Shown here in pieces: positions 11,192 through 63,579 of a DNA stretch of 64,000 nt; position 1 is the first letter of the stretch, and the number at the start of each line of letters is the position of its first letter. A program made the position numbers and the translations under genes. The DNA comes from Thermoplasmatales archaeon SW_10_69_26 (lineage in GTDB: Archaea > Thermoplasmatota > SW-10-69-26): assembly GCA_003009755.1 (NCBI GenBank), contig PXUB01000038.1, forward strand, positions 1-64,000. The letters are read 5' to 3'. A model generated the notes under the pieces. The model was not told where the DNA came from, searched no databases, and saw only the letters and a list, made by a program, of their open reading frames with translations.

Positions 11192-11336
11192 CGTTTGACC
11201 GCGCCCTGGTATTTGAATATTGGTTAACGACAGGTGGTCACGGAAGCCCGCTGAGGACCCCAACAGCCCCGCACCAGGCTCGGGCCAGGGCGTCGCCGTT
11301 GGGTGACCACTCGCCGAGGTGACCCATACTGGGCGC

Positions 11337-17937: not shown

Positions 17938-18058
17938 CAGGTCACCCTCCAACCCCCTCGCCCTTAAATCGTCCGACAGGGCCGGGCTCGACAGCTCACC
18001 GCTCTTGCCACCGCAGCCTTCACCAAGCAAGCCGGGCTCGGGTCGACGGAGCACGAGC

Positions 18059-18976
18059 GTGGCGATCGAGATCGACGGCCTGGCGAAGGCCTACGGCCGC
18101 CAGCGCGCCCTCGACGGGATCGACCTCGAGATCCCGACGGGCGCCACGTGCGGCCTGCTGGGCCCCCAAGGCGCCGGCAAGACGACCCTAGCCCGCTTGC
18201 TGGCCGGCCTCGAAGTCCCCACAGCCGGGAGCGCCCGCATCGACGGGCACCCGATCGGAGAGCCCCAGGCCACCGCGCGCCTCGGCTACATCCCCCATCC
18301 AGCCGGCTTCGACGAGGGCCGAACCCCCCGCCAGATGCTCCGCCTGGCCGGCCGCCTGCACGGGATCCCCACCAGCCGACGAGAGCGCCGCCTCGAGCGC
18401 CTGCTCATCGACCTCGGCCTGGAACACCTCGGCGGCCACGCGATCGAGCACCTCGACGGAGGCCACCGACGACGACTGGCACTCGCGCACGCGCTCGTGC
18501 CCGACCCCGACCATCTCGTCGTCGACGAACCCACGCGCGGCCTCGGCCCCGCCGCCAGTCGCCGCATGCGTGAGGCCTTGATCGAGAAGACGCGCGAGCG
18601 CACGCTGCTCGTCCTCACATCCATCCCCGACGATGTCGAGGCCCCGTGCGAGCGCGTCGTCGGGATCGAGGACGGCACCATCGTGCTCGACGCCGGCGTC
18701 CACGAACTCGCCGCCGACCACGGCGTCGCCATCGCGATCGGCCTCGCCGGCGAGCTCCCCCAACGAGCCCTCGACGAGCTGCGCGAACACGAGGCCGTGG
18801 CCGCCCTCCGACGCGACCCGACCGACGCCGACCTCGAGCTGTGGCTTACCGACCCCGACGAAGCCCCGGCCGTCCTCCGCCTGCTCGTCGAGGCCGACGC
18901 ACCCGTCGCCTCCTTCGACCGCCAGCCCCCACCGCTGGGCGCCACCGTCGCCGAACACATGGAGGGCCAGCTGTGA
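18059..18976 (+). CDS. ABC transporter ATP-binding protein (degenerate motifs)
   Basis: GPQGAGKTT Walker A, VVDEPT Walker B; signature LDGGH; H-loop His absent. Confidence 0.88.
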   Translation: MAIEIDGLAKAYGRQRALDGIDLEIPTGATCGLLGPQGAGKTTLARLLAGLEVPTAGSARIDGHPIGEPQATARLGYIPHPAGFDEGRTPRQMLRLAGRLHGIPTSRRERRLERLLIDLGLEHLGGHAIEHLDGGHRRRLALAHALVPDPDHLVVDEPTRGLGPAASRRMREALIEKTRERTLLVLTSIPDDVEAPCERVVGIEDGTIVLDAGVHELAADHGVAIAIGLAGELPQRALDELREHEAVAALRRDPTDADLELWLTDPDEAPAVLRLLVEADAPVASFDRQPPPLGATVAEHMEGQL

Positions 18977-20088
18977 TCCCCTCCCTCACCCAGCTCGTCG
19001 AGGAGCTGGACGCCGGGCTCGAACGAGAGGATCCCGAGCTCGTCTCCGAGACCGCCCGAACCCTGCGGGAGACGATCGCGAGGGCCCTCGGCGACCGCCG
19101 CCTGCAGGCCGAGGACCCGATCCTCGCCCGACGTCGCCGCCTGCACCAGCGCCTCGAAGTGTTGGAAGCCAAGGCTCAGGCCGGCCGCTTCGACGACGCC
19201 GACGACGACCTCGACGCCGTCCGCGAGATGGCCCACGAGACCGAACGCGCCCTCGAGCAACGCCCTGCCGCCGACACCGAACCCGAACCCGATCCCGGAC
19301 CCGGCCCCGACGCCAGCCTCCACCTGGCCCGCCGCGAAGCTCGCGCCACGGTGACGAGCCTCCCCGGCGCCGTCGTCGGGACCCTCAGCCTCCTCGTCTT
19401 CACGCTCGCCCTCCAAGCCAGCCTCGACGCTGCCCCGCGGACGCTGGCCGCCGTCTGGGCCAACGCCCGGACGCCGGCCCTCGCCCTGGCTCCCCTGGCC
19501 GGTCTCCTCGTCGGGATCGAGGGCCTCGCCGACGCCCGCGCCGGCCGCATCTGGCTTTCGGCCACCTCCGGGCTCTCGCGGACCCGGATCGTCGTGGCCG
19601 AAGCCCTCGGGGCGCTGGCCGCGCTTGCGGCTCTGCTGTTGGGGCCCGCCGTACTGGTGATCCTCGTCGGCCTGGGCCTGGGCTTGGCTCCCGACCCGAC
19701 GACCACCGCGCCCGTCCTCGGGGGCCTGTTCCTGCTGGCGACCAGCTTCACGGCGATCGCCTTCGCGTTCGCGGCCCGCCCGTCCTCGCGCTCGGTCACG
19801 TTGGCCGGCACCCTCGCCAGCTACCTCTGCCTTGGACCGGTCTGGGAGGCCGCCTTCGCCGCCGGCCAGGCCGCCGGCCGCGGGCGGGGGGCGCTGGTCG
19901 CCTCCCTGCTGCGCGGGCTCTCCCCGGTGAGGGCCGCCGACGCCCTCCTCTCTTCCGTCGACCCCTACGCTCTCCCGGCTGGTCGAGGCCTTCTCGTCCT
20001 CGCGGGCTGGACCGTGGCCGGCCTCGCGTTGGCCGCCTACCTCGTGCAGGAGCGAGGGTTCGGGCGGCCTCACCACGGCGAGCCGTAA
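18973..20088 (+). CDS. ABC-2-type permease with N-terminal helical domain
   Basis: 4-bp overlap with the ATPase; ~100-aa charged helical N-terminus then ~6 TM segments with a G.....L....SR..IV signature. Confidence 0.75.
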   Translation: MIPSLTQLVEELDAGLEREDPELVSETARTLRETIARALGDRRLQAEDPILARRRRLHQRLEVLEAKAQAGRFDDADDDLDAVREMAHETERALEQRPAADTEPEPDPGPGPDASLHLARREARATVTSLPGAVVGTLSLLVFTLALQASLDAAPRTLAAVWANARTPALALAPLAGLLVGIEGLADARAGRIWLSATSGLSRTRIVVAEALGALAALAALLLGPAVLVILVGLGLGLAPDPTTTAPVLGGLFLLATSFTAIAFAFAARPSSRSVTLAGTLASYLCLGPVWEAAFAAGQAAGRGRGALVASLLRGLSPVRAADALLSSVDPYALPAGRGLLVLAGWTVAGLALAAYLVQERGFGRPHHGEP

Positions 20089-20119
20089 CTAGGACCCACA
20101 AGGTACAACAACCTGGGTC

Positions 20120-20137
20120 GTTTAGGGGTGCCTAAAC
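20120..20137. promoter_or_regulatory. Palindromic operator, DtxR/IdeR-like box
   Basis: GTTTAGG-GGTG-CCTAAAC perfect inverted repeat ~30 bp upstream of the 20166 start. Confidence 0.65.
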
Positions 20138-20165
20138 CCGGCGCGAATCCCGCGCAGGTGTTCCC

Positions 20166-22378
20166 ATGAGAGGCTCCCGACTCGCCACGATCGTGCTCGC
20201 GCTCGCCGTCACGACCGCCCCCACATCGTCACCGCCATGGGGGAGGACCGACCCGAGGACGCCGAGGCCACCTACCAACAGGCCTTCGCCCAGCACGGCG
20301 AGACCCTGCCCACGGTCGCGGACACCGTCGAGACCGCACTCGAGGACGCCCGCCAAGCCGAGCCCGGCTCCGCGGAGTACGCCGCCGCCTCGCAAACGGC
20401 CAAGAAGGGCGTGCTCGCCCTCAGCTACCACGCCGCGCACCGATTCGCCGACGACGACAACCGCGACGAGGTCGAAGCCTACATCGAGGTCCTCACCACC
20501 AAGTTCGACGGCGAAGAGCAACTGACCGAGACGAAGACCGCCGTCACCGACGACACGACCCCGCTCGACGAAGCGATGGCCACGCTCGACGCCGAGTACC
20601 GCGACCTCGTCACCGCCAAGGTCTACGCCGAGACCCAGGAAACCCCCGAGCTGCTCACCGCCGGCGAGACCACGACGGCCGCCAAGGAAGCCGGCGAGGC
20701 GCTCGGCTACGCGCTCAGCCTCCACGCAGGCGACCAGAGCCCACCCGAGAAGCTGTACGAGGAGCTCGACGGTCTCGTCGAGCACACGCTCGCCCAGGAG
20801 GAGGATGCCACCCGCGGCGAAGCCGACGAGATCCTCGCCCTGCTCGCCGACCACGCCCTCCAGACGACCCCCACCGAGAAGACCCAGGCCCGCCAAGCCT
20901 ACCTGGCCGCCCTCGACGGGGGCGACATCGACCGAGCCGAGACGATCTACGAGGGCAACTTCTCCGAACACGCCTCCGAGTACGCCCCCGAGGCCCACGA
21001 CCGCATCAACCAAGCCCTCACCGACATCCGCCAAGCCGACGGCGCCAACCGCACCGTCCAGCACGAGATCCTCGCCAAGTCGCTGCTCGACGTCGCCTGG
21101 TCGGTCGGCTTCACCGAGCTCGCCGAGGACGAGATCCACGAAGGGCTGGGTTACCTGGCGATCCTCGTCGAGACGTTCGACGACCCCACCGACCCCGACG
21201 AATTGGGCATGGCACTGGGTCATGTCGCCGCCAGCCAGTCCACCGACAACCCCCACCTGTCCACCGTCCGCGACACCGCCAGCGCCCACTTCCTCGACAA
21301 GGTCCACGAGGAGATCGACGAGGTCTTCATCAACTGGAACGACACCGAGACCGCGCGCGAGAAAGCCATCGAAGGCGTCCTCTACTACCAGCCGATCCGC
21401 GAGGAGGTCGCCCACACGCTCTCCGACGAGGACGCCGACCACCTCGCCGACGAGCTCCGCGGCCTCTACAACGCCACGACCGCCGGCGACCGCGAGGAAG
21501 CCGAACACGAAGCCGAGGAAGCCCGCGACCTGCTCGCCTCCTACGAGAACGCGGGCGAGGACGTCACCGAGATCGATACCGTCCTCACCGACATCGAGCG
21601 CAGCCTCTCGATCATCACCGTCGAGATCGAGGAGTACGTCGACTACAAGGCGGAGGGCAACGACGAGAAGGCCAACGAAGAGGTCGAGGAATCCAAGGCC
21701 TTCATCGGGCAAGCCATCGCCACCTTCGAGGACAACCGCCAGACGCTCGCGGCCGCCGACGCGCAAGCCGCCGACGAGCTCGAGGCCGACATGACCGAGA
21801 TCCAAGATCGCCTCGAGGCCGAGGAGGACATCCCCTCCATCCCCGACGTCGTCGAGCGCGCCATCGACCGCCTCGACGCCTTCGAAACCGACCAACCCGA
21901 AGGCCCTGCCGTCGACGTCGAGATCGGCGATCCCGTGAAGGAAGCGGAGACCGTCCGCGTGCCCATCCGCCTAGCCGACCCGCCGGAGGGCGGCTACAGC
22001 GTGCAAGCCACGATCACCTACGACGCCGAGCGGATCACCGTCGACAGCGTCGAGATCCCGGCCGAGGTCGGCGCCGAGACGAGCTCGCCCGGCGAGATCC
22101 GCTTCAACGCCGCCGAGACCGAGACCCCGGCCGACCCCGTGATCGCCCAACTGCACCTCGCCCCCGCCGATCCCGATGCCCCGCCCGAGCTCTCGGTCGA
22201 CGTCGAGACGCTCACGGACGGCCAAGGCGACCCCCTGGCTCTCGGCAACGTGACCGGCCAACAGCTCGACCTCGCCAGCGTCGGCGACGCGGGACCCACC
22301 AGCAACGTCCCGCTGGGTCCCGGCGCCCTCGTCGCCTCCATCGCCTCCGCGCTCGCGCTCGCCCGCCGACGACCCTGA
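20166..22378 (+). CDS. Large surface protein: acidic helical domains, C-terminal cohesin-like domain and membrane anchor; signal peptide out of frame by one base at C5 run 20218-20222
   Basis: MRGSRLATIVLALAVTTAP in the 20166 frame continues as HIVTAMGED in the 20237 frame; cohesin-like VRVPIRL..GGYSVQATITYD..PGEIRFNA; tail VPLGPG-TM-RRRP. Confidence 0.75.
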
Positions 22379-22389
22379 CCCCGACCCGC

Positions 22390-23277
22390 ATGTCGCTTGC
22401 CCGCGCCGCCGTCGGCCCGCTGCTCGCCTTCACCCTGGTAGCCGTGGCCTTCCCGGTCGGCAGCCAGGCGAGCGACGATCTCCGGGTGCCCCAGAGCCTC
22501 GCCGAACCCGCCGAGGACCTCCGCGATGGCCTCACCCAGGTCGCCGACGCCGACACGATCGACGAGGCCCGCCAGGCCCACGACGACGCCGTCCGAGGGC
22601 CGGCCGACCAACTGCTGCCCTACGCCAACGACCTCGCCGACCGCTCGGGGGACCTGCTGGCGACCTACCTCGATCGCCTGGACGAGCAGCTGGCGACCGG
22701 CAACCTCTCCGATGCCCGCTCGCTGGCCAGCGCCGGCGCCCAGCTCGTCGCCGACGACGTCCAACCCGTCGCCGAGCGCTGGGACCGCAACCGCACCGCG
22801 CTCGCCGCCGGCCCCGTCCAAGCGACGGACGAGGGCCCCGCCGTGGCGCTCGTCCTCGTCAACCCGCCGCCGGGGTCGATCGCCGCCGTCGACGCCAGCC
22901 TCACCCTCGAGGCGGCCACCCCGCGGTCCGCGAGCCTCGCGCTCGGTCAAGGCGAGACCACCGTCGACCCCGCCAACGGGACCGTGCGCTGGGCCAGCTT
23001 CGACGCCTCCGCGGCCGCCAGCTTGGCCACCGACGGCGCCCAACCCGTCGCGCTGGGCGAGGCCCGCATCGATCCCACCGGGGACACGATCGCAACGAAC
23101 GTCACCGTGCACGATCTGCTCGACGCCGACGGCCAGTCCACGCCCGCGATCGGGCTCGCCAGTGACCGCGAGGTCCCCACCGACGGGACCGGCCTCCCCA
23201 CGACCTGGCTAGCGCTGGGCGGGGTCGCGCTCGGCGCCGTCGGGCTCGGCTTGTGGGTCCAGAGGTGGGAACCCTGA
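22390..23277 (+). CDS. Membrane-anchored secreted protein: helical domain plus second cohesin-like domain
   Basis: Signal peptide; VALVLVNPP.GSIAAVDASLTL..DPANGTVRWASF..LGE..V.VHDLLDADG; C-terminal TM. Confidence 0.65.
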   Translation: MSLARAAVGPLLAFTLVAVAFPVGSQASDDLRVPQSLAEPAEDLRDGLTQVADADTIDEARQAHDDAVRGPADQLLPYANDLADRSGDLLATYLDRLDEQLATGNLSDARSLASAGAQLVADDVQPVAERWDRNRTALAAGPVQATDEGPAVALVLVNPPPGSIAAVDASLTLEAATPRSASLALGQGETTVDPANGTVRWASFDASAAASLATDGAQPVALGEARIDPTGDTIATNVTVHDLLDADGQSTPAIGLASDREVPTDGTGLPTTWLALGGVALGAVGLGLWVQRWEP

Positions 23278-24194
23278 GCGCCCCCATCGAAGCCCGCAAC
23301 CTCACGAAACGCTACGACGACCTCGACGCCATCCGCGGCCTCTCCCTGAGCGCCGACGAAGGCCAGGTCCTCGGCCTCCTGGGCCCCAACGGGGCCGGAA
23401 AGTCGACCACGATCAAGGTGCTCGTCGGCCTCGTCCACCCCACCGAGGGCGAGGCCTGGATCGGCGGCCACCACGTCCAAGACGAGGGCATCCAGGCCCG
23501 CCGCCAGCTGGGCTACCTCCCCGAGGTCGTGGGCCTGTACGAACAACTCACCGCCGAGGCATATCTGCGCTACATCGCCCGTTTCCACGGCACCAGCGGC
23601 CCCCGCGCCACCCACCGCATCGAGGCCCTGTTGGCCGACGTCCGCCTGACCCAAGCCGCGGACCGACCGATCGGCACCTTCTCCAAGGGTATGCGTCAAC
23701 GCCTGGCGCTGGCCGGCGCCCTCTTCCACGATCCCCCCGTCCTCGTCCTCGACGAGCCGCTCACCGGGCTCGACCCGGAGGGCATCGTCAAGATGAAGCA
23801 GGCGATCGAGCAACTCGGCCGCCAGCGCACCGTGCTCGTCTCCTCCCACGAGCTCCACGCCGTGGAGTCGCTTTGCGACCGTGCGATCATCCTCCGCGAC
23901 GGCGAGGAGCTCACCTCGGCGCCCGTCGCCGAGCTCACCCGACGCGATCCCCCTCGCTACACCCTCACCACGGCCGACCCCTTGCCCGAGCCTCGAGCCT
24001 TGACCGACGTCGACGGCGTCCGATCGATCCACGCCTCCTCCCAGAGCACGCTGCAGGTCGAGGTCACCGACGCCGACGCCGCCTCCCTCCTCGTGGACCA
24101 CCTCGTCCGCGGGGGCCACCGCGTCCGGCACCTCGAACGCGACGAACGCACCCTCGAGGAAGCCTTCGTCGACATCACGGGGGTCCGCGCGTGA
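23253..24194 (+). CDS. ABC transporter ATP-binding protein
   Basis: GPNGAGKST, FSKGMRQRL, LVLDEP, SSH. Confidence 0.93.
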   Translation: MGPEVGTLSAPIEARNLTKRYDDLDAIRGLSLSADEGQVLGLLGPNGAGKSTTIKVLVGLVHPTEGEAWIGGHHVQDEGIQARRQLGYLPEVVGLYEQLTAEAYLRYIARFHGTSGPRATHRIEALLADVRLTQAADRPIGTFSKGMRQRLALAGALFHDPPVLVLDEPLTGLDPEGIVKMKQAIEQLGRQRTVLVSSHELHAVESLCDRAIILRDGEELTSAPVAELTRRDPPRYTLTTADPLPEPRALTDVDGVRSIHASSQSTLQVEVTDADAASLLVDHLVRGGHRVRHLERDERTLEEAFVDITGVRA

Positions 24195-25390
24195 GCGATC
24201 CCTGGACCGACCTCGAGCAAGCCCTCGCCGGGGACGACCCCGCCCAGGTCCACCGCACGACCGACCGCATCCGCGACGCCGTGCGCGGGGCCTTCGAGGG
24301 CCGCCAGCTCGTCCGCGGCTCCCTGCTCGTCGAACGCCGCCGCCGGCTCGAGCACACCCTCGCCGAGCTCGACGACGCGGTCGCCGGCGACCGGATCGAC
24401 GAAGCCCGCGAGCGAGCCGAGCAGGTCCGCGAGCTGGCCCCCGCCCTCGTCGACCAAGCCCGCCAGCTCGACCCGATCGACGCCGAGGAGGAGGTCTCGA
24501 CCGGCGGCTGGTTGGCCAACGCCGGGACCGTCGCCCGCAAGGAAGCCGTGCTCGGCATCCAGGGAACGCGCGGGCTGTTGCTGTTCGGCATCCTGGGGCT
24601 CACGTTCGGCATCGGCCTGCGGTCGGCGATCGGCGGCTCCACGGCCACCGGCGGCCAAGCCAGCGTCAAGCTCGTGTGGAACTACGCCCACAGCCTCGCC
24701 TTCCTCGCCCTCCCGCTGGCCGGCCTCCTCGCCGGGCACGGGCTCGTCAACGAGGAACGCCGCTCGGACACGATCCACATCCTCGCCGCCCAACCCGTGG
24801 GCCGGATCGGGATCGTCCTCGGCAAGTGGCTGGGCATGGCCGCCACCCTGGGCTTGGCCGTCGCCGCCAGCGCGGGGCTCGTCGGCACCGCCGCTTACGC
24901 CGTGACCGGGACGCTGGGCCCCCCGAGCGCCGCGGTCACCTACCCGCTGGCCTGCTTCGGGCTCGCCTTGGCCTTCGGCTCGATCGCGCTGCTGGCCAGC
25001 ACCTTGCTCGAGCGCACCGGTCCCACCCTCGCCGTCGGGCTGGCCAGCTTCGTCCTGCTCGGCCCGGTCTGGCAGAACGCCTTCCTCACCCGCTCGCTGG
25101 AGCAGGCCGGCACGATCCCCGATCCGGGCTCCGTGCTCGTCTACCTCGCCACCCCGTTCACCGCCTGGTGGAACTGGACCAGCGAGCTGTTGGGTCCCGT
25201 GAACGACGCCACCGGGCTCCCCCAGGGCGAACCCTGGCACGCCGCGCTGGTCAACGCCGTCGAGACCGGGGCCCTCGAGGCGCTCCCGTTCTACGCGACC
25301 CAACCCTACTACGCGATCGTGATCGCCGCCTGGATCGCCGTCTGCCTCGGCCTCGCCGCCGCCGTCTTCCGCCGCCAGGATCTGGCCTGA
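24191..25390 (+). CDS. ABC-2-type permease with N-terminal helical domain
   Basis: VARKE, EERRSDTIHILAAQPVGR.GIVLGKWLG, terminal FRRQDL. Confidence 0.85.
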   Translation: MSDPWTDLEQALAGDDPAQVHRTTDRIRDAVRGAFEGRQLVRGSLLVERRRRLEHTLAELDDAVAGDRIDEARERAEQVRELAPALVDQARQLDPIDAEEEVSTGGWLANAGTVARKEAVLGIQGTRGLLLFGILGLTFGIGLRSAIGGSTATGGQASVKLVWNYAHSLAFLALPLAGLLAGHGLVNEERRSDTIHILAAQPVGRIGIVLGKWLGMAATLGLAVAASAGLVGTAAYAVTGTLGPPSAAVTYPLACFGLALAFGSIALLASTLLERTGPTLAVGLASFVLLGPVWQNAFLTRSLEQAGTIPDPGSVLVYLATPFTAWWNWTSELLGPVNDATGLPQGEPWHAALVNAVETGALEALPFYATQPYYAIVIAAWIAVCLGLAAAVFRRQDLA

Positions 25391-25438
25391 CCCGTGCGAA
25401 GATGAAACGGGACCGCAAAGGTACTAATGCCGGGCCTG

Positions 25439-25454
25439 TCTAGGCAGCCCTAAA
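25439..25454. promoter_or_regulatory. Second DtxR/IdeR-like operator, overlapping the start codon
   Basis: TCTAGG-CAGC-CCTAAA; same spacing to an upstream AAGGTAC as the 20121 box. Confidence 0.6.
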
Positions 25455-26428
25455 TGGTGCCCGACGCCCCGCTGCCGACCCTGCTGCTCGCCGCGCTCGT
25501 CCTGACACCCAGCATCCCGGGCGCCCTCGGCCAGGACACCCTGTCCACCGAGGAGCTCGAGACCCGGCTCGACGAGCTGCAACGACGAAGCCAGCAAGCC
25601 GTCGACCGCTACGAGGCCGGCGACCGGGACCAGGCCCTCGACCACGCCCGCCACGTCCGCGAGGCCTTCACCTTCGCGGAGGGCAACGCCTCCGTGCTCG
25701 AACGCACGATCAACGACGTCAGCGCGGTCACCATCGGTGAACAGGTCAAGGCTCAAGCCTCCCGCCTGGCCAGCGCCATCGACGCCGGCGACCCCGTCGA
25801 GGAGGTCCAACAGTCGCAGACCGAGCTGGAACCCCTGCTCAACCGGCTCGTGCTGGTCTCGAAAGGCGAGCACGCGCCCGCGAGCCAACGCCAACTCACC
25901 ACCGAGGAATCCATCCACGAGGCCGCCCAGGAGGTCCGCGACCTCGTCGACGAGGCCGTCACCCTCTACACCGAAGACCAACCCGAGGCGGCGCAGAAGA
26001 GCGCCGAGGACGCCTTCTTCGCGTTCGAGCAGAACGGGCTCGGCCCCGACACGACCGTCGTCGACGAAGGGCTCGAGAACGAGGTCGAACACGACATCAA
26101 GAACTTCCAGGGGGAGGCCGGCGAGCCCGGCCTGGCCGACCTGATCGAGCACGGCGCCCCCGTCGGGGAGGTCGAGGACCAGGCCCAGACGGTCCACGAC
26201 GGCCTCGACCAGATCGTCACCCTGCTCGAGGCCACCAAGCCGCCCAGCGACCTCGGCGACGCCAACCAGGACGGCGACGTCACCATCGTCGATGCCCTCC
26301 TCACCGCGCAAGCCTCGCTGGGCATCCAGGCCGAGGACCCCACCATGGACGCCAACCAAGACGACGCCGTCACGATCGTCGACGCCCTGCTGATCTCGCA
26401 AGCCGCCCTCGGCATCCGGGATCTGTGA
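25454..26428 (+). CDS. Secreted protein: two FTR1-N-terminal-like helical domains plus C-terminal dockerin
   Basis: Signal peptide; duplicated GDANQDGDVTIVDAL / MDANQDDAVTIVDAL calcium loop-helix repeats. Confidence 0.85.
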   Translation: MVPDAPLPTLLLAALVLTPSIPGALGQDTLSTEELETRLDELQRRSQQAVDRYEAGDRDQALDHARHVREAFTFAEGNASVLERTINDVSAVTIGEQVKAQASRLASAIDAGDPVEEVQQSQTELEPLLNRLVLVSKGEHAPASQRQLTTEESIHEAAQEVRDLVDEAVTLYTEDQPEAAQKSAEDAFFAFEQNGLGPDTTVVDEGLENEVEHDIKNFQGEAGEPGLADLIEHGAPVGEVEDQAQTVHDGLDQIVTLLEATKPPSDLGDANQDGDVTIVDALLTAQASLGIQAEDPTMDANQDDAVTIVDALLISQAALGIRDL

Positions 26429-26432
26429 AACC

Positions 26433-27818
26433 GTGACGACGACCCCGACCTGCGCCACACCGAGCCGCTCGACGAGCCCCAGCGCTTCGACCGGGCTCGT
26501 CCTCCTCGCCCTCGCGCTGGTCGGGACGAGCCTGGCCCCGACGGCCACCGCCGCCGGCGACGCGTCCCTCCCCGACCAACTCGACACCTTCCGCGCCCAG
26601 ATCGAGACCGCCGTCGCCGACTACGAGGCCGCCTACGCCAACTACACGGAGGCCACAAGCGACGAGGAGCGCCAGCAGGCCCGCCAGGCCATGCACGAGG
26701 CCGGCCGCGCGGTCGGATCCGCCTTCCTCGCCTTCGAGCAAGGCCACGGCGACGACGGCTCCCTGTCCGTGTTCATGCAGACCCAGATGGACCAGGGCTT
26801 CTACCGCTCCTTCGAGCAGGACGTCGTCCTGCTGCGAGCCACGATGACGGACGCCGACACCGGCGAGGTCCCCACGCCCGCCGAGGTCGATGCCAAGACC
26901 TCGCCGGTGTTCCAGTCGCTGGACCGAGCCGAGGGCTGCTTGCCCGAGGGATGCGGGTCCGCCTGGACCGGCGCCGCCGCCCAGTCCTTCCTCGTGCTCC
27001 TGCGCGAGGGCTTCGAGGCGGTGCTGTTGGTGGGCGCCATCGTCGGTTACCTCCACAAGAGCCAACGCTCGGAGAAGGTGGCCAACGTGTTGAGCGGCGT
27101 CGGCGCCGCGCTGGTCGCCACGATCGCGACCTGGGTCCTCTTCGACCGGTTGTTCGCCGCGGCCGCCCGCAGCTCGTTCGCCCAGGCCACGCTCGAGGCC
27201 GCCACGATGCTGTTGGCGTCCGCGATCCTCTTCTACGTCGGGTTCTGGCTGCTGTCGAAGACCGAGTCCGACCGCTGGCGAGCCTTCATCGACGGCAAGC
27301 TCGAGGATTCCCTGGCCGACGACCGCGGCTGGATGCTCGCCCTCGTCGGGTTCCTGGCCGTGTTCCGCGAGGGCGTCGAGACCGTCGTGTTCGTGCAAGC
27401 GATCTCGCTCGGCAGCGGCGGCGCCTGGGGGGAGATCGGGCTCGGCCTCGGGCTCGGGGTCCTCGCCCTCGCCGGGTTGTACTACGCGTTCCAACGAGCC
27501 AGCGTCTCCGTCCCGCTGCGGACGTTCTTCGGCGTCACCAGCGGCATCCTGTGCCTGCTGTCCCTGCGCTTCCTCGGGTTGGGCGTCTTCGAGCTGCAAG
27601 AGGCCGGCCTGCTGGGCGCTACCCCGCTCGACGCCGTCGGTGCCGTCCTCGCCCAGAACGCGCTGCTTGGAACCCTGGCCGGCGCCCTCCTGGGCTTCTC
27701 GCCGACGCTCGAGGTCGCCATCGCTCAAGCGTTGCTGGCCGCCGTCATCCTCGCCGGCGTCGTGTGGACCTTCCTCGTCCGGCCCGCCCGAGCCACAGCC
27801 CCCGCCGCCGGCGGGTGA
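26433..27818 (+). CDS. FTR1-family high-affinity iron permease with extracellular N-terminal domain
   Basis: Two RExxE motifs (LREGFEAVL, FREGVETVVF), ELQEAG, ~7 TM. Confidence 0.93.
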   Translation: MTTTPTCATPSRSTSPSASTGLVLLALALVGTSLAPTATAAGDASLPDQLDTFRAQIETAVADYEAAYANYTEATSDEERQQARQAMHEAGRAVGSAFLAFEQGHGDDGSLSVFMQTQMDQGFYRSFEQDVVLLRATMTDADTGEVPTPAEVDAKTSPVFQSLDRAEGCLPEGCGSAWTGAAAQSFLVLLREGFEAVLLVGAIVGYLHKSQRSEKVANVLSGVGAALVATIATWVLFDRLFAAAARSSFAQATLEAATMLLASAILFYVGFWLLSKTESDRWRAFIDGKLEDSLADDRGWMLALVGFLAVFREGVETVVFVQAISLGSGGAWGEIGLGLGLGVLALAGLYYAFQRASVSVPLRTFFGVTSGILCLLSLRFLGLGVFELQEAGLLGATPLDAVGAVLAQNALLGTLAGALLGFSPTLEVAIAQALLAAVILAGVVWTFLVRPARATAPAAGG

Positions 27819-27821
27819 GCC

Positions 27822-28574
27822 TCAGGGATCGAAGCCGTCCTCGTCCTCGAGGCTCGGGTGCTTGTCGGGCGGCGCATCGCGCGGCTTGGCGAAGTACTCC
27901 TGCATCACCTGCACGCTCTCGTGCTCGCGCCGGTTGCGCTCCTCCTTGGGGATCTCCTCGCACCCCTTGGGGACCTCGCGGTCGCGCAGCGTGAAGTAGC
28001 CCTCCGGGGCCACCCAGTCGTGGTAGAACGCCGGGTCGACGTCCTCGACGAGCGTGATCGCCACCTTCGCGCCGTGGCCGGCGCTCACGATCGTCTGGTG
28101 GTACTCCTCGGCCAGCCGGCCGGCCGCGTACAACCCGTCGACCGCGGTCCGGCCGTCGTCGTCGATCGCGACGTAGGTCTTCGAGCCGCTGTCCCGCAGG
28201 TCGACGTCCAGATCCTCGAGGTAGGCGGGGCTGGACTTCGTCGCCGCGATCACGTTGCCGGCGGACACCGTGCCCTCGCTCGTCTCGATCCGGAACCCGT
28301 CGCCCTCGGCCTCGATCGCCTCGACCTTGGCGTCGCGACGATCGCCGCCGTTGCGGTCGACCTGGTCCGCCATCATATCGATCAGCAACCGCGGGTTCAC
28401 GCCGGCCGGGAACCCCGGGTAGTTCTCGAGGTGGGCGTTGCGCTTCACGATCGACGCCCCGTGGTTGATCACGAGCGTGTCCAGCTCGGCGCGCGCGGTG
28501 AAGATCGCGGCCGAGAGACCGGCCACGCCGCCGCCCACGATCACGACGTCTCGGTGCTGGCTGGCCTCGGGCAT
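27822..28574 (-). CDS. NAD(P)/FAD-dependent oxidoreductase (short thioredoxin-reductase-like)
   Basis: GGGVAGLSAA, ENYPGFP, T.VDGLYAAG; no CxxC. Confidence 0.85.
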   Translation of the reverse strand: MPEASQHRDVVIVGGGVAGLSAAIFTARAELDTLVINHGASIVKRNAHLENYPGFPAGVNPRLLIDMMADQVDRNGGDRRDAKVEAIEAEGDGFRIETSEGTVSAGNVIAATKSSPAYLEDLDVDLRDSGSKTYVAIDDDGRTAVDGLYAAGRLAEEYHQTIVSAGHGAKVAITLVEDVDPAFYHDWVAPEGYFTLRDREVPKGCEEIPKEERNRREHESVQVMQEYFAKPRDAPPDKHPSLEDEDGFDP

Positions 28575-30717: not shown

Positions 30718-32316
30718 GTGCTCGCCCGCAAGAGCGCACTGATCGTCCTCAACGCCGTCGTCGGCGGCGCGTTGGGGTTCGTCGCCCTCAAGGTCGTCGC
30801 CCTCTACATGGGAGCGGGGATCTACGGCCAGCTCGCGTACGCGACGAGCCTGGTCGGCCTGGTCATGTTCCTCGGCAACATGGGCTTCACCAAGGCCCAT
30901 GCCAAGCGCGTCAGCGAAGGCGAGGACGTCGGCGACTGCGTGGCGACGCTCACCGCCTGGAACGGCGCGATCGCGAGCATCTACATCCTGATCGTGCTCG
31001 GCGCGTTCGCCGCCAACGAGCTGTTCCTCGGCCAGGACCTGTTCTCCACGACGCAGACCACGATCCTGCTCGTCACGCTGGCCGAGGCCGCCTTCTTCAT
31101 GCGCAAGGTCGCCCGCAGCACGTTCGAGGCCCGCGTCGAGGCGGCGCTCAGCGAGTCGGTCGTCTTCTTCGAGCACATCGTCCGCACCCCGATCATGGCG
31201 GCCGGCGCCCTCCTGTACGCCTCCTCCCAGGGCCGGGAGGGCCCGATCTTCGGCTGGTTGCGCGCCAACGCGCCCGGGCTGACGGACATCGTCGCCGAGT
31301 ACGCGCCCGAGACGCTGGCGTTCGCCGTCACGGCGGCCGCGGTCGTCTCGATGACGGTCGGGTTCGTCCTCTTGCTGCAGCGCGTCAAGCCCGGCGACTT
31401 CAGCATGAAGATGGTCCGCAGCTACGCCGAGTTCGGGCTGCCCGTCTTCGGCGCCAGCTCGTTCAACAGCCTGCAGCAGTACCACGACAAGGCCGCGCTC
31501 GGGTTCTTCTGGTCGGATGCGGTCGCCGGCCGCTACTTCGGCTTCCAGCGCCTGTTCAGCTTCCTGGAGGCCGTGTACGCCGCCGTCCGGTCGATGCTGT
31601 TCCCGATGATCAGCGAACGCCACGCCGAGGGCGACCGCGAGGGCGTGCGCCGGTTGTCCCGCGAGTCCCTGCGGTACCTGTCGATGATCAGCGTCCCCGC
31701 CGCGTTCGGCGCGACCGCGCTCGCCGAACCCCTCATCCGGATCATGCTGTCCGAGGACTGGCTGCCCGCCGTCGAGGTCTTCATCGCGCTCGCCTTCGTC
31801 TACCCCCTGCGCGGCATCGTGCAGACCCTCACCCAGATCCAGTACGGCAGCGACGAGCCGAAGATGTCCGCCGGCATCTCGATGTTCGGCTCGACGATGA
31901 ACGTCGTCGTCGGCCTGCTGTTGATCCCCTCCAGCGTGCTCGGCTTCCAGCTCGGCGGCCTGGCCGGGCTCGGCGCGGCTGCTGGCACCCTCGTCGCGCT
32001 CGTGCTCGATGCCGGCGCGCGCGCCTACACGCTCCAGTTCCCGCTCGGCCGGCGCGTCTGGCTGAGCTGGCTGCGGCACTGGATCGCCGGCGGCCTGATG
32101 GCCTACGTCGTCTACCGAGCCAGCCTGGCCATCGGCGAGGTGCGATGGTTCATCCTGCCGGCCTTGATCGCGCTCGGCGGCGTCGTCTACTTCGCCCTGC
32201 TGTGGGTGTTCCGCGACTTCGGGAGGGACGACGCCATGGTGTTCTGGGCCGCCGTGCACCCCGGCGAGATGGCCTCCTACGTCAAGGACGAGGTCCTGCT
32301 CGACGACGAGGACTGA
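30718..32316 (+). CDS. Oligosaccharide flippase (Wzx/MOP family)
   Basis: 12-14 TM; DKAALGFF..AGRY, LFPMISE, G.AGAA.GT pattern. Confidence 0.85.
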   Translation: MLARKSALIVLNAVVGGALGFVALKVVALYMGAGIYGQLAYATSLVGLVMFLGNMGFTKAHAKRVSEGEDVGDCVATLTAWNGAIASIYILIVLGAFAANELFLGQDLFSTTQTTILLVTLAEAAFFMRKVARSTFEARVEAALSESVVFFEHIVRTPIMAAGALLYASSQGREGPIFGWLRANAPGLTDIVAEYAPETLAFAVTAAAVVSMTVGFVLLLQRVKPGDFSMKMVRSYAEFGLPVFGASSFNSLQQYHDKAALGFFWSDAVAGRYFGFQRLFSFLEAVYAAVRSMLFPMISERHAEGDREGVRRLSRESLRYLSMISVPAAFGATALAEPLIRIMLSEDWLPAVEVFIALAFVYPLRGIVQTLTQIQYGSDEPKMSAGISMFGSTMNVVVGLLLIPSSVLGFQLGGLAGLGAAAGTLVALVLDAGARAYTLQFPLGRRVWLSWLRHWIAGGLMAYVVYRASLAIGEVRWFILPALIALGGVVYFALLWVFRDFGRDDAMVFWAAVHPGEMASYVKDEVLLDDED

Positions 32317-32317
32317 C

Positions 32318-33157
32318 TCACGCCTGGAACCCGTAGTCGGCCAGGAACGGGTACCGGTCGAGGCGCTGCTCGATCTCCTCGACGACCTCCGCGTCCCACT
32401 CGACCTCCTCCCGGCGGCGGTTGGGCTCGTCGTACACGAGCTCGGCACACGGCTCCAACCACTCGCTGGGCGCCTCCACGCCGAGGAACGACGCCATGTT
32501 CGATAGCTCGCGGGCGGTGTGCTGGATCAGGTCCTCGTGGCGCACGTCCAGGTACTCCTCCTCGTCCATCTGCTCGCGCGCCCAGGCACACGTGTCGGCG
32601 AGCCGGAAGTACAGCCGGGTTGCCGAGGCCAGCGAGATGTCCCCCACGCGCGCCATCGTCGTGATGTTGTCGAACGGGTTGCGGGTGACGTGCAGGGCCC
32701 GGATCGGATCCTCCACGCGCTCGCGCAAGAGCTCGAGCTTGTCCTCGTCCTGGGCAAGCCAGTTGCTCGTGGCCGCACCCTCCTTGTCCCCGATCACCTC
32801 GAGATCGGTCCAGGTGCCCTGCCAGGCGCCCTCGACGTCGTAGGAGTAGCCGGTCCACTCGCGGCCGCGGTCGGCGAACCAGCGATCGCGGTCGAGGATG
32901 AGCGCGTAGATCTGTTCCCGGGCGAAGCCCGGCTTCAGGTACCGCAGGACGTTGAGCTCGTGGCTGATCACCGTGTTCGGGTGGGCGTTCAACAGCTGGC
33001 CGACGAGCGAGTGCCCGCTGCGAGGGTACCCGATGAAGAAGCAGAACGTCTCGATCCCGTCGAGCAGGGACCGCTTGCGGACCGCATCCCACCACGACGA
33101 GGCGTAGTCCGGCACGAGATCGTGCTTGCGACGGACGAGATCGATCAGACCGCCCAC
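32318..33157 (-). CDS. Sulfotransferase 3
   Basis: GYPRSGHSLVG.LLNAHP, GDK, RNPFDNITT, RHEDLI. Confidence 0.85.
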   Translation of the reverse strand: MGGLIDLVRRKHDLVPDYASSWWDAVRKRSLLDGIETFCFFIGYPRSGHSLVGQLLNAHPNTVISHELNVLRYLKPGFAREQIYALILDRDRWFADRGREWTGYSYDVEGAWQGTWTDLEVIGDKEGAATSNWLAQDEDKLELLRERVEDPIRALHVTRNPFDNITTMARVGDISLASATRLYFRLADTCAWAREQMDEEEYLDVRHEDLIQHTARELSNMASFLGVEAPSEWLEPCAELVYDEPNRRREEVEWDAEVVEEIEQRLDRYPFLADYGFQA

Positions 33158-33264
33158 GGCGTGGTCGAACCGATGGCATAGCTTAGGCGTTTCGCAAACG
33201 CGCCGGCGCCAAGCCCGGGTGAGAACTGAAAACCTAAACCGGCGGGCCCGCGTCCGTGCCAGCG

Positions 33265-34146
33265 ATGCCGGACCCGCCCGTCCCCCTCGACTTCATCGTG
33301 TTCGCGTCGCAGAAATCGGCATCGACGTGGTTCTGCCGCTGCCTCGACGAACACCCCGAGATCGCGATCGGGTACCCCTACGAGAAGCGGTTCCTGCGCG
33401 AACGGGAGGGGTGGGTCGAACGCGAGGAGAACCCGCAGTTCCTCGACGACTGGGAGGCCTACCGCGACCAGTTCCCGGACAAGGAGGACCACCAGCTGCG
33501 CGGCGACGGCGACGTCGAGCTGTACTACAACGAGTCCGGCCCCGACGTCGTCGAGAAGTTCTACCCCGACGTCAAGCTGATCGCGATCCTGCGCGACCCC
33601 GTGGCCCGGATCCGGTCCGAGTACGCCTACCGGGTGCGCGACCCCAAGGTCGAGGAAGGCACCCTCGAGGAGTACATCGACGAGAGCCTCACCATCGACC
33701 GATCCAGCTACGCCAAGCAGCTGGACCCCTGGTTCGACCGGTTCGGCGAGGACCAGATCCTCGGGCTCCCCTGGACCGAGCTCGGCGAGGAGGGCGAGGA
33801 CCTGCTCGAGGAGGCCTTCGCGTTCCTGGACGTCGATCCCAGCGTCGAACCGCCCTCGCTCACGGAGCGCGTCAACCCCCACCGGGAGAAACAGCCCTGG
33901 TTCCAGGCCTTGGAGTCGGTGGCCCGCGGCCTCCGCCGCCTCGGGCTGGGACCCTTGATGGATCTGGTGAACCGCGTCGGGGTCGGCCCAGCCGTGCGCG
34001 AGGTCGGCGACCCGCCGGCCGACAAGCCCGAGATGCCGCCCGAGATCGAGGCCGAGCTGCGCCGCGAGCTGGCCGACGACATCGACCAGCTCGAGACGAT
34101 GATCGGCAAGGACCTCAGCGCCTGGAAACCCGAGCCCGAGGCCTGA
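33265..34146 (+). CDS. Sulfotransferase 4
   Basis: DFIV..QKSASTW..L.EHPEI, KLIAILRDPVARIRSEY. Confidence 0.85.
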   Translation: MPDPPVPLDFIVFASQKSASTWFCRCLDEHPEIAIGYPYEKRFLREREGWVEREENPQFLDDWEAYRDQFPDKEDHQLRGDGDVELYYNESGPDVVEKFYPDVKLIAILRDPVARIRSEYAYRVRDPKVEEGTLEEYIDESLTIDRSSYAKQLDPWFDRFGEDQILGLPWTELGEEGEDLLEEAFAFLDVDPSVEPPSLTERVNPHREKQPWFQALESVARGLRRLGLGPLMDLVNRVGVGPAVREVGDPPADKPEMPPEIEAELRRELADDIDQLETMIGKDLSAWKPEPEA

Positions 34147-34155
34147 GCCGCAGGC

Positions 34156-35337
34156 CTACTCCTCGACGAGATCGAGGAACACGTCCTCGTAGCGCTCGGC
34201 GCTTGTGTCCCACGTGTACCCGGATTCCACCGTCTCCCGCAGCCGCTTGCGGTCGGGGTCCAGCTCGAGCCCCTCGCGGACGGCTTCCACGATGTCGTCG
34301 TCCACGACCGTGAACCCGAGCAGTTCCTCGGGTAGCCAGGGCCGACGGATCGCGGCCGGTGTCCCCTCCAACATCGCCTCCAACAGCACCATGCCGAAGG
34401 CCTCGGCCAACGAGGGCAGGCAGAACAGGTCGGCGGCCGCGTACAGCTGGTTGCGCTTGCGATCGGAAACCCACCCGTGCACGGTCACGCCCTCGCCCAG
34501 CGACCGCTCGTCGACGAGCGCCCGGAACCGGTCCAGGTCGGGCCCTTGCCCGGCGACGTGCACCTGGCAGTCCACCTGCTCGGCCACGTCGAGCAACGAC
34601 CCGATGCGCTTGCTTCGATCCATGCGGCCCAGGTAGAGGACGACGCGTTCCTCGGCCCCGATGCCGAGGCGCTCGCGGGCTTGGGCCTGCTCGACGGGCG
34701 GGAACTCCTCGGGGTCGACGCCGTTGGGGACGATCCTCAACCGCGGGTCGTCGTCGGGCACCGACGCCAGCATCGAGACGACCGTGTCACTGACTGGCAA
34801 GATCGCGTCCAGCTCGGCCAGCTGGCGGTTCTCCTTGCGGGTCCGACGCTGGATGTCCAACCACTGCAGCAACCGTCGGGGGTGGTAGCGGCCCTTCTCC
34901 TCGATGAGCTTCTCCCGCGAACCCCCCATGTAGTCGTGGTGGTAGGCGGTCCCGTGCACGGTCGCGGCGACCGGCGGGGCCTCCGGGTCGGCCAGGAACC
35001 CGGCCGCGTAGAAGCTCTGCACGTGGACGACGTCCGCGTCTAAGCCGTGCTCGCGCGCATGCTCGTGGGCGGCGGTATCGAAGAACCGCCACCAGTGGTA
35101 CGCCGGCAAGCCTCGGGCCCACCAGGGGACGTAGGCCATCTCGCGCACCTCGACCCCCTCGCGAGTGTAGACCTCGGCCTCGTGATCCATGGCGGTCGTG
35201 AGGATCGTGACCTCGTGGCCCCGCTCGTGCAGAGCCGTGGCTGTCTGCCAGGTCACCTCCTCCATCCCGCCGCGCACGTGCCAGGGGAGGGTGGGGGCGA
35301 CCGTCAGGATCGACAAGCTCCCCGGCGTGCGAGACAC
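34156..35337 (-). CDS. Glycosyltransferase family 4
   Basis: GGME, PNGVD, YLGRM..K, PS..EAFGMVLLEAM; GTG start inferred. Confidence 0.9.
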   Translation of the reverse strand: MSRTPGSLSILTVAPTLPWHVRGGMEEVTWQTATALHERGHEVTILTTAMDHEAEVYTREGVEVREMAYVPWWARGLPAYHWWRFFDTAAHEHAREHGLDADVVHVQSFYAAGFLADPEAPPVAATVHGTAYHHDYMGGSREKLIEEKGRYHPRRLLQWLDIQRRTRKENRQLAELDAILPVSDTVVSMLASVPDDDPRLRIVPNGVDPEEFPPVEQAQARERLGIGAEERVVLYLGRMDRSKRIGSLLDVAEQVDCQVHVAGQGPDLDRFRALVDERSLGEGVTVHGWVSDRKRNQLYAAADLFCLPSLAEAFGMVLLEAMLEGTPAAIRRPWLPEELLGFTVVDDDIVEAVREGLELDPDRKRLRETVESGYTWDTSAERYEDVFLDLVEE

Positions 35338-35358
35338 GAAGCCGTCAGCCGCTGTGCG

Positions 35359-35366
35359 TTTAAATA
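35359..35366. promoter_or_regulatory. TATA-like box between the divergent GT4 and GT2 genes
   Basis: TTTAAATA in a ~40-bp divergent intergenic gap. Confidence 0.5.
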
Positions 35367-35378
35367 GTTGCTTCGATT

Positions 35379-36356
35379 GTGACCGTCGTGGCACCGCCCG
35401 ACGTGTCGGTCGTCATCGTGGTGAAGGACGACCCTCGCGTGCTGGACTGCGTGGAGGCCGTGCTGGCCCAGTCGGCCCCGTTCAGCGCCGAGGTCGTCGT
35501 CGCCGTCGACGACGATCCCACCGACGACACGCCCGACCTGCTCGCCGACGCCTTCGGTGACGAGGATCGGGTGCGCGTGCTCGAGACCACCGGCAACGTC
35601 GCCGAGGCCTGGAACGCGGGCGCCCGCGCGGCGCGAGCCGACGTGATCGCCCGCATCGACTCCGACGCCGTCCCACTCGACGGGTGGCTGGCCGCGATCG
35701 CCCACCCCGTCCTCGACGGCGAGGTCGAGTGGTCGGCCGGCTCGGTGGAGGGCGTCCACACCGAGGGCCTGGTGGCCCGCTACTTCCACCACCGCACCGA
35801 AGCCTACTGCCGCCGCTTCGAGGACGAGCGCAACCTCCGCGACGAGGTGCCCTCCTGGAACGTCGCCTACGACCGAGCCACGCTCGAGGAGGCCGGCTGG
35901 TACGACCCCTGGCTGAGAGCCAGCGAGGACTGGGACCTCCACAAGCGCCTGGCCGACCTGGGCGCCCGCGGGATCTACGTCCCCGGGGCCCGGATCCGCC
36001 ACCACCATCCCGAGACGATGGGCACCTTCGCCCGCAAGGAAGCCTGGTACAAGACGGGCCAGTACCAGATGATGCTCAAGCACGGCCCCGCGACGGTCGC
36101 TGAAGCCCTCGTCCTCCCCGCCGCCTACGCAGGCGTGCTCGCCGTGCTCGCCGCCGGGGTTCTCGTCCCGGCGATGGCGGGCGCCGGGCTGGGGCTTTTG
36201 CTCCTCGTGGCCGCCTGGCACGCGGTCGGCGGCCTGCGCGAGGACGACCCCGCCTGGTACCTGCGTCCGCTGTTCCGCCCGATCGAGGCGCTGGCCGGCC
36301 TGTACGGGTTGGCGCGAGGGCTGCTCGTCTACGGCTTCACCCGGCCCTCGGGTTGA
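35379..36356 (+). CDS. Glycosyltransferase family 2 with C-terminal TM segments
   Basis: VSVVI, A.NAG, IDSD, EDWDL..RL. Confidence 0.88.
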   Translation: MTVVAPPDVSVVIVVKDDPRVLDCVEAVLAQSAPFSAEVVVAVDDDPTDDTPDLLADAFGDEDRVRVLETTGNVAEAWNAGARAARADVIARIDSDAVPLDGWLAAIAHPVLDGEVEWSAGSVEGVHTEGLVARYFHHRTEAYCRRFEDERNLRDEVPSWNVAYDRATLEEAGWYDPWLRASEDWDLHKRLADLGARGIYVPGARIRHHHPETMGTFARKEAWYKTGQYQMMLKHGPATVAEALVLPAAYAGVLAVLAAGVLVPAMAGAGLGLLLLVAAWHAVGGLREDDPAWYLRPLFRPIEALAGLYGLARGLLVYGFTRPSG

Positions 36357-60499: not shown

Positions 60500-60527
60500 G
60501 TGGGAGTCCGCTAGGAACATTTAAGTC

Positions 60528-63456: not shown

Positions 63457-63579
63457 TCTGGCATATCTAGCCCTGGAGGACACCGGGGCCTCCTTCCCCG
63501 ATTTCTTTCTCTGATCAGGCAGGTGTCTCGTCTTCTGTTCCTCTGCCTTCTTTTCTACCACCTCCCCCCTCCAAGTTAG

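Follow-up and report, generated by a model that had tools for sequence, protein, structure and literature searches.

The window considered here is a 64,000-nucleotide stretch of contig PXUB01000038.1 from Thermoplasmatales archaeon SW_10_69_26, and its positions 18005-27818 hold a cluster of eight genes that includes an FTR1 permease. We interpret this cluster as probably a metal-uptake locus of the FetM type, most likely for iron, in which the outer domain (ectodomain) of the transporter is split over three proteins that would be rejoined through a cohesin-dockerin pair. An original prediction made from this DNA alone had described eight co-oriented genes, and this is borne out: all are on the + strand and close together, neighbors either overlapping or standing apart by 4 to 78 bases. 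It had also proposed that a secreted dockerin protein docks helical iron-binding domains onto two anchored cohesin scaffolds and thereby feeds FTR1. Comparative evidence from sequences partly supports that core idea. The first reading left a conserved ABC-2 transporter pair with its cohesin-like neighbor unexplained, and it needs correcting in that the permease has its own copy of the helical module found in the dockerin protein.

The host genome (G000) amounts to 2.8 Mb in 49 contigs and is 95% complete, and the window has a G+C content of 70%. Sequencing runs that contain the locus carry the label halite metagenome. These labels and a genome-encoded archaeosortase A (ArtA; 139.5 bits) are among the indications that point to a halophilic archaeon of the Thermoplasmatota as the host. 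No RNA dataset is listed as containing the locus. The parts of the cluster, with the names used for them below, are as follows.

18005/18059-18976, + strand: ABC1 ATPase, DrrA/NodI-like (Pfam ABC_tran, E 3.7e-24).
~18973-20088, + strand: ABC1 permease, weakly ABC-2 type (ABC2_membrane_2, E 0.015, below the cut-off).
20166..20222, + strand: signal-peptide piece of Coh1, with the frame-1 translation MRGSRLATIVLALAVTTAP, which matches the signal peptides of homologues.
20237-22378, + strand: body of Coh1, 713 amino acids from the ATG at 20237.
20237..21892, + strand: helical ectodomain of Coh1, comprising modules A (residues 1-115), B (116-225), A (226-340), B (341-450) and C (440-552).
21893..22282, + strand: cohesin module of Coh1, residues 553-682 (Pfam Cohesin, 20.1-23.2 bits).
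22307..22378, + strand: C-terminal hydrophobic anchor of Coh1 (hydrophobic 19-mer at residues 691-709), then RRRP.
22390-23277, + strand: Coh2, with a signal peptide, a helical region of ~100 residues, a divergent cohesin module and a C-terminal transmembrane anchor.
22801-23163, + strand: cohesin module of Coh2, residues 138-258 (hhalign against the Coh1 beta domain).
23253-24194, + strand: ABC2 ATPase, DrrA/GldA-like, a conserved core gene (ABC_tran, 7.5e-32, plus DrrA1-3_C).
~24191-25390, + strand: ABC2 permease of the ABC-2 family, a conserved core gene (ABC2_membrane_2, 3.9e-25).
25454-26428, + strand: Doc, whole gene; secreted, with the layout D-D-dockerin.
25454..26239, + strand: signal peptide and tandem D modules of Doc, residues 28-142 and 146-262 (hhalign).
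26240..26428, + strand: dockerin of Doc, two repeats of calcium loop plus helix (Dockerin_1).
26433-27818, + strand: FTR1 permease, whole gene (PF03239).
26433..26966, + strand: N-terminal signal/anchor and extracytoplasmic D module of FTR1, residues 44-178 (hhalign).
26970..27818, + strand: permease core of FTR1, with REGFE at 27003-27017 and REGVE at 27366-27380.

The extracytoplasmic location of Coh1, Coh2 and Doc is predicted from their signal peptides and anchors. A Pfam scan of 18059-27818 found no gene for a carbohydrate-degrading enzyme, in agreement with what had been claimed for the locus.

The argument for a divided ectodomain begins with the helical parts of Coh1, Doc and the permease, which resolve into four modules that we call A, B, C and D. 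Within Coh1, modules A and B are each repeated (A, residues 1-115 against 226-340, hhalign probability 99.1%; B, 116-225 against 341-450, 97.0%). Doc is a tandem duplicate of the ~115-residue module D (DocN against DocC, hhalign probability 96.6%, E 4.8e-10), and a profile built from an alignment of 5 FTR1 orthologues identified the N-terminal domain of the permease as a third D copy (match to DocC, probability 92.3%, E 5.5e-7, 103 columns). Module C resembles D weakly (24% in a profile comparison). The four modules were found nowhere else in the genome. The conserved residues of module D, found in the motifs Y..G(D/N)...A, aY(F/L)..FE, a loop Glu and D..L...E, are mainly carboxylates, which would be consistent with a site for a hard cation but prove nothing; secreted proteins of halophiles are expected to be acidic in general.

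Our strongest evidence that Coh1, Doc and the permease act together at the permease is that the same modules occur elsewhere as a single chain and in the same order. A profile of Coh1 retrieved 71 proteins at E<=0.001 from among 1.84 billion representatives; four of these were members of the query alignment, and the other 67 were classified with local module models. Eleven of the 67 carry helical modules N-terminal to an FTR1 domain, and 18 carry cohesins (7 of them with the A-B-(A-B)-C-cohesin layout), and the remaining 38, whole proteins or fragments, consist of A-B, A-B-C or A-B-C-D on their own. Among the 50 relatives scanned with Pfam, FTR1 was found in 11 and Cohesin in 6. The relatives fused to FTR1 are listed here.

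P0048, P0050, P0054, P0058, P0064, P0069, P0073, P0083, P0084, P0089 and P0104, from the protein library; and the gene at 3725-5647 of contig C12 in genome G013.

One of these chains, P0064, reads A-B-C-D-FTR1 with an additional weak cupredoxin-like stretch, and P0058 reads P19 domain-A-B-D-FTR1. Within the phylum, the Coh1 profile matched 6 of 401 genomes. One of them, G013, belongs to the same class as the host and encodes a lone 640-amino-acid A-B-FTR1 protein, with no ABC, cohesin or dockerin gene in the 14 kb read around it; in G045, an A/B frame overlaps an FTR1 frame. Module D also extends into bacteria: it matches the N-terminal periplasmic domain (residues 181-277) of an FTR1 gene on an E. 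coli plasmid (E 1.1e-6 among 18,658 open reading frames). That gene heads a cluster that encodes P19, an FtrD-like/YHS membrane protein, two ABC permeases (one of them FtsX-like), an ABC ATPase and a TlpA-type thioredoxin, a content that identifies it as of the FetMP-Fls/FetABCDEF type.

Judged by these matches, Coh1, Doc and the permease appear to be one transporter ectodomain in pieces. The original prediction had assigned the helical parts to FTR1 function, which the fused permeases support, and had cast Coh1 as a scaffold; instead, Coh1 itself bears most of the ectodomain (A-B-A-B-C). The fusions also make it extremely unlikely that the cohesin and dockerin proteins belong to a general surface or adhesion layer and lie beside FTR1 by chance. 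Eleven library proteins and G013 have the helical modules that Coh1 and Doc carry in one polypeptide with FTR1, these modules are confined to this locus within the genome, and the six core genes described below stay together in four loci with unrelated flanks.

The permease itself is a clear member of its family, scoring 83.2 bits on PF03239 against a cut-off of 25.3, and its two RExxE motifs are present as had been described (REGFE, residue 191; REGVE, residue 312; each within a hydrophobic segment). A phmmer search at E<=0.01 returned no solved structure for the window FTR1 or for the FetM-type permease of the E. coli plasmid (L040). The partners that accompany FTR1 proteins in other systems, P19 (PF10634), EfeO Peptidase_M75, DyP (Dyp_perox_N) and FtrD-like proteins (PF10080), gave 0 matches in the host genome. 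An EfeO-like identity for the helical parts was set aside, as Peptidase_M75 was not found.

Three further genes touch on the permease. A second FTR1 gene, on contig C22 (24948-27266, - strand), has no helical N-domain and carries a C-terminal extension of ~450 residues. A three-domain multicopper oxidase is encoded ~7 kb upstream of the cluster (9587-11263, - strand), with unrelated genes between; the other four loci showed no such neighbor. In fungi, FTR1 works with a ferroxidase. Convergent with FTR1 lies a gene for a 250-amino-acid thioredoxin-reductase-like flavoprotein (27822-28574, - strand), which is reminiscent of the thioredoxins of Fet clusters and is not conserved in the other loci.

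The metal is likely iron, because the permease has the FTR1 motifs, one fused relative includes P19, and module D provides the link to FetM. We consider it quite improbable that lead, copper, manganese, zinc or some other cation is the metal involved, or that the locus is there for sensing or detoxifying metals instead of acquiring iron. Plasmid relatives of the fused permeases, annotated in Cupriavidus and related genera as "cytochrome c/FTR1 family iron permease," lend that possibility some support, and we take them to be a PbrT-like lead-uptake branch of the FTR1 family. The searches of the genome for P19, M75, DyP and FtrD-like proteins brought up no iron-specific partner or regulator, and the multicopper oxidase upstream could be read in the same direction. 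Against it, both RExxE motifs are intact, the P19 domain of the fused relative is an "Fe2+ transport protein" domain, and the FetM-type permease in which module D also occurs belongs to an iron-uptake cluster (PMC7285068).

The second half of the argument concerns the pair that would rejoin the pieces. The C-terminal end of Doc consists of two tandem calcium-binding loops, DANQDGDVTIVD at residue 269 and DANQDDAVTIVD at residue 299 (residues 269-280 and 299-310), each of the form D-x-N/D-x-D-G-x5-D and followed by a helix, as in type I dockerins. Both loops are invariant across 19 homologues, and Dockerin_1 (PF00404) is matched in 19 of 19 members of the Doc family (best E, 1.7e-10). For the window protein, the score was 22.7 bits by hmmscan and 25.2 bits in the genome search, around a gathering cut-off of 22.9 bits; the orthologues in all four other loci pass it (33.6-38.8 bits). 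The two repeats are nearly identical, from which we infer that the dockerin might bind in either orientation. An AF2 model of Doc comprises two helical bundles and then the dockerin (mean pLDDT, 73.7), and a Doc profile searched against PDB sequences gave weak dockerin matches alone (E ~0.004).

Other identities were considered. Cytochrom_B562 was weakly matched in 8 of 19 Doc homologues and was set aside, as Doc has no invariant His or Met. A DUF5059 lead from a protein atlas (score, 0.89) was rejected: no match in G000 exceeded the cut-off, and within the phylum DUF5059 appeared in 1 of 151 genomes, below the cut-off, in the acidic tail of an unrelated KH-type open reading frame. A second query of the atlas (P0052) returned weak unnamed matches only.

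The cohesin of Coh1 is best seen in its relatives. The gathering cut-off of Pfam Cohesin (PF00963) is 24.1 bits, and Coh1 orthologues in three of the four other loci exceed it (34.0, 27.8 and 39.1 bits), with no match in L009; six relatives from the protein library score 27.8-42.8 bits. The Coh1 profile, searched against the library of 1.84 billion proteins, retrieved true cellulosomal scaffoldins with 4-7 cohesins, and among PDB sequences it found nothing below E 0.2. A complex prediction for the Coh1 cohesin (residues 548-686) with the dockerin (residues 258-324) gave a score of 0.17 against a mark of 0.32, which is evidence neither way. At the family level, then, the cohesin, dockerin and FTR1 assignments of the original prediction hold, with orthologues above the Pfam cut-offs.

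Coh1 is interrupted in the assembly. Its signal peptide (ATG at 20166) and its body (ATG at 20237) lie in different frames, and the anchored protein of ~737 amino acids described earlier had joined the two; the body has 713 amino acids from its own ATG. In contigs from two other sequencing runs (X2, record 10, and X4, record 25), a net 64 extra bases stand at 20222/20223. The contigs listed for X1 and X3 have matches that start or end exactly at this point, after 69 and 77 unmatched letters. Among the contig pieces listed, which leave 105 further pieces aside, none spans 20222/20223 without the insertion. The additional 64 bases bring the signal peptide into frame and yield a Coh1 of ~758 amino acids, against 755-783 in homologues. 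Because the extra bases in X2 and X4 restore the frame, the break is more plausibly due to a collapse in assembly or to a deletion in the strain than the mark of a dead gene, as far as these contigs indicate.

At its other end, Coh1 has a layout like that of PGF-CTERM proteins. The PGF_CTERM hidden Markov model matched four proteins of the genome, the Coh1 tail not being one of them, and one Coh1 homologue (P0038) has a literal PGF. The Coh1 protein of L011 has a lipoprotein-like N-terminal signal in place of the C-terminal anchor.

Coh2 is the second candidate socket. Its beta domain matches that of Coh1 with an hhalign probability of 94.2% (E 1.2e-7), and the L011 orthologue of Coh2 exceeds the Cohesin cut-off with 33.2 bits; a Coh2 profile had no match among PDB sequences.

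Comparison of loci, a check proposed with the original prediction, shows that the cluster is conserved. Its core comprises Coh2, the ABC-2 ATPase and permease, Coh1, Doc and FTR1. Of five loci, four (the window, L008, L009 and L011) have the complete set of six, arranged in three gene orders. In L008 and L009, the order is Coh2-ATPase-permease-Coh1-Doc-FTR1; in L011, it is Coh1-FTR1-Doc-Coh2-ATPase-permease; and in the window, it is ABC1 pair-Coh1-Coh2-ABC2 pair-Doc-FTR1. The fifth locus, L010, has Coh1-Doc-FTR1 only, on a contig that begins 392 bases upstream of Coh1. Identities between core genes of different loci range from 27% to 56%, and the flanks are unrelated. Of 41 relatives, 4 have Doc, as do 4 of the 21 genomes in the class. 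When each species was represented by one genome, a scan yielded 30 loci, with full-length Doc in 4 and a dockerin-only match in 26, and a metagenome scan with the Doc alignment yielded 21 loci, all dockerin-only matches.

The pair also appears to be private in most of these hosts. Dockerin_1 and Cohesin are each matched once in the host genome, in both cases inside this locus, and the three other Thermoplasmatota with the locus (G003, G010 and G011) have one dockerin each, which is the Doc orthologue. A cohesin on a 1,067-base contig of G011 proved to be unrelated to Coh1 and Coh2. The L011 genome (G401), a metagenome-assembled genome labelled Anaerolineae, has 34 dockerin and 17 cohesin matches and contains the most distant copy of the six-gene unit; these matches amount to a rich cohesin-dockerin network in a Chloroflexota-labelled genome. 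A DDE transposase gene lies at the end of the L011 contig.

We propose the following mechanism for the probable split transporter. Doc, the sole dockerin of the genome, would plug into the cohesin of Coh1, that of Coh2 or both, so that the ectodomain is reassembled noncovalently at a cell surface where soluble partners are not retained by an outer membrane. The resulting A-B-A-B-C / D-D / D array would capture the metal, which would then pass from the distal modules to the D module of the permease and on to the RExxE pore. A conserved fourth part, found only with the split design, is the ABC-2 permease with its DrrA-type ATPase, the genes of both being coupled to that of Coh2; by analogy with FetBCD, this pair could perform ATP-driven work on the docked complex or export a helper molecule.

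The ABC genes of the window comprise a conserved pair and an extra one. Coh2 overlaps the ABC2 ATPase gene by 25 bases, orthologues of this ATPase adjoin Coh2 in L008, L009 and L011, and orthologues of the ABC2 permease are 39-50% identical. The ABC1 pair is an addition particular to the window locus, since L008, L009 and L011 have no second ABC pair. The ABC1 ATPase is 35% identical to that of ABC2, lacks the H-loop histidine (TSIPDD where ABC2 has SSHELH) and has LDGGH where the signature motif is expected, so that it may be a degenerate ATPase that partners the one of ABC2. The ABC1 permease, whose GTG start overlaps the ABC1 ATPase stop, begins with a helical region of ~110 residues that has no signal peptide and continues with five hydrophobic segments.

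We think that Coh2 may be the outer subunit of the ABC-2 pair, because the genes overlap by 25 bases and because an ABC pair occurs in 4 of the 4 split loci that can be judged and is missing near the fused G013 gene; no other step of our interpretation is as weak as this one. A familiar counterpart is NosDFY, in which an ABC-2-type ATPase and permease work with a dedicated extracytoplasmic protein and ATP drives a hand-over of metal outside the membrane, not substrate transport. The analogy applies to the ABC-2/Coh2 pair alone: a NosD-like beta-helix, NosL and NosZ are not present here.

A more specific version of the mechanism, which we consider unlikely, is an ATP-powered surface relay for iron. 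Coh1 (A-B-A-B-C), anchored by lipid or helix, would be the distal capture arm and Coh2 the extracytoplasmic subunit of the ABC-2 transporter; the dockerin of Doc would alternate between the distal arm and the membrane-proximal Coh2, and the effect of cytoplasmic ATP hydrolysis would be passed outward to strip metal from the D modules of Doc onto that of the permease. If this were true, cohesin-dockerin binding would be a working joint of the transporter, not a passive tether, and the system would suggest, in a form that can be tested, why FetM systems of bacteria need an ABC transporter, which is so far unexplained.

A simpler arrangement, to which we give a fairly low chance, is that Doc is a soluble partner standing in for P19 or EfeO, that cohesin-dockerin binding does no more than prevent its diffusion from a cell without an outer membrane, and that Coh2 and the ABC-2 pair make up a separate exporter, coregulated or coinherited. 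The fused A-B-FTR1 gene of G013, which has no ABC neighbor, is in keeping with it, and dockerin-tagged binding proteins for uptake have already been reported in archaea (PMC9012536). Such a tether would leave unaccounted for the retention of Coh2-ATPase-permease with Coh1, Doc and FTR1 in 4 of 4 judgeable loci despite reshuffled gene order, and likewise the 25-base overlap between Coh2 and the ATPase gene. Moreover, Coh2 is one of just two cohesin-type modules available to the single dockerin, and Coh1 itself bears transporter modules.

Several findings weigh against the split-transporter interpretation as a whole. The Pfam check proposed for the window proteins gave a mixed outcome: FTR1 matched and the dockerin matched at the borderline, while the Coh1 cohesin (20.1 and 23.2 bits) fell just under the 24.1-bit cut-off and Coh2 had no match, as indeed 0 of 15 members of the Coh2 family match Cohesin even at E<=10. 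Coh1 is frameshifted in the assembly, though the other contigs suggest an artefact. Modules A-D match no known metal-binding family, and no Pfam family covers them. Conservation is limited to carboxylate residues, Doc having no His, Cys or Met that is invariant, and Peptidase_M75 was found in 0 of 151 Thermoplasmatota genomes. The NCBIfam models for EfeU/Ftr1 matched the permease below their cut-offs only (EfeU NF041756, 111.4 against 255 bits). In G013, the fused gene stands without an ABC neighbor, so the ABC pair is dispensable for some forms. The ABC-2 permease and the FtsX-type FetBC belong to different fold classes, which makes the Fet analogy loose, and the family is rare, with five loci known and 4 of 21 genomes of the class represented.

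The original prediction knew of no described system like this one, but comparable systems have been described. FTR1/FetM permeases are widespread iron importers; we know of no described function for their large outer domains. The closest known system is bacterial FetMP-FetABCDEF, and our comparison covered FetMP-FetABCDEF, FetMP-Fls and FetMP-Flp of C. jejuni, E. coli F11, Salmonella plasmids and Y. pestis. Clusters of this type are reported in 33 bacterial species by Liu et al. 2018 (PMC6083913), and a version on a Salmonella plasmid is described in PMC7285068. According to Richardson-Sanchez et al. 2023 (PMC10783030), fetA, fetB, fetC and fetD are each required under iron limitation, and it is unclear what the ABC transporter FetBCD does and what it transports. 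Like the Fet systems, the archaeal locus encodes an FTR1/ILT permease with an N-terminal extracytoplasmic domain built from module D, a separate extracytoplasmic partner, and a conserved set of ABC ATPase and permease, which in the Fet case is required and has no known substrate (PMC6083913 and PMC10783030). Unlike them, it is archaeal and its parts are linked by a putative cohesin-dockerin join; its locus and genome have no P19/FetP and no FetA (FtrD-like/YHS), the locus has no thioredoxin, its ABC permease is of the ABC-2 type rather than the FtsX type, and its ectodomain adds A-B-C, which the E. coli protein does not have. The fused FTR1 permeases share the modules, their order and the FTR1 core, but each is one polypeptide without cohesin or dockerin.

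Two other systems invite comparison. In anaerobic methanotrophic (ANME) archaea, dockerins are common on binding proteins of the TroA and NikA/OppA types, according to Chadwick et al. 2022 (PMC9012536), and noncellulosomal cohesin-dockerin pairs are likewise thought to hold a metal-uptake binding component on the archaeal surface. The ANME systems differ in using an ABC importer, in genomes with many dockerins and multicohesin proteins, whereas here the permease is FTR1, the genome has no second pair, and the cohesin protein itself bears transporter modules. EfeUOB resembles the archaeal locus in its FTR1-family permease, its two RExxE motifs and its extracytoplasmic partners, but the window FTR1 lies far under the EfeU cut-off, and the genome has neither EfeO M75 nor a DyP peroxidase. 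We found no literature linking dockerin with "iron permease" or with EfeU; the one paper retrieved with dockerin, cohesin and FTR1 was discarded, Ftr1 there being a formyltransferase and not a permease.

FetM-type FTR1 uptake and noncellulosomal cohesin-dockerin tethering are thus already known, and what is new here is the split-and-rejoin architecture, the delimitation of FTR1 ectodomain modules and the parallel to the ABC requirement of the Fet systems. The four helical modules, unannotated until now, are parts of the outer domain of FTR1/FetM permeases that can be fused, free-standing or cohesin-linked, and they are tied to FetM of E. coli. If the proposed join is real, the locus would be a natural example of a transporter ectodomain dismantled and put back together by a private plug-and-socket pair, and it would give archaeal cohesin-dockerin binding outside cellulosomes a concrete, testable job. 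In the conserved ABC-2 partner, the locus offers a counterpart to the unexplained dependence of FetMP-FetABCDEF on an ABC transporter, and the small, separable proteins are suited to binding and metal-transfer assays.

Elsewhere in the window, we observed a gene for tRNA-Arg(TCT) at 42879-42975 (- strand), whose length of 97 bases suggests an intron. A flippase-like gene, two sulfotransferases and glycosyltransferases of the GT4 and GT2 families lie at 30718-36356 and may form a glycan-sulfation cassette. Over positions 60001-64000, the G+C content falls from ~0.70 to 0.58-0.60, and this segment may be foreign or mobile DNA.

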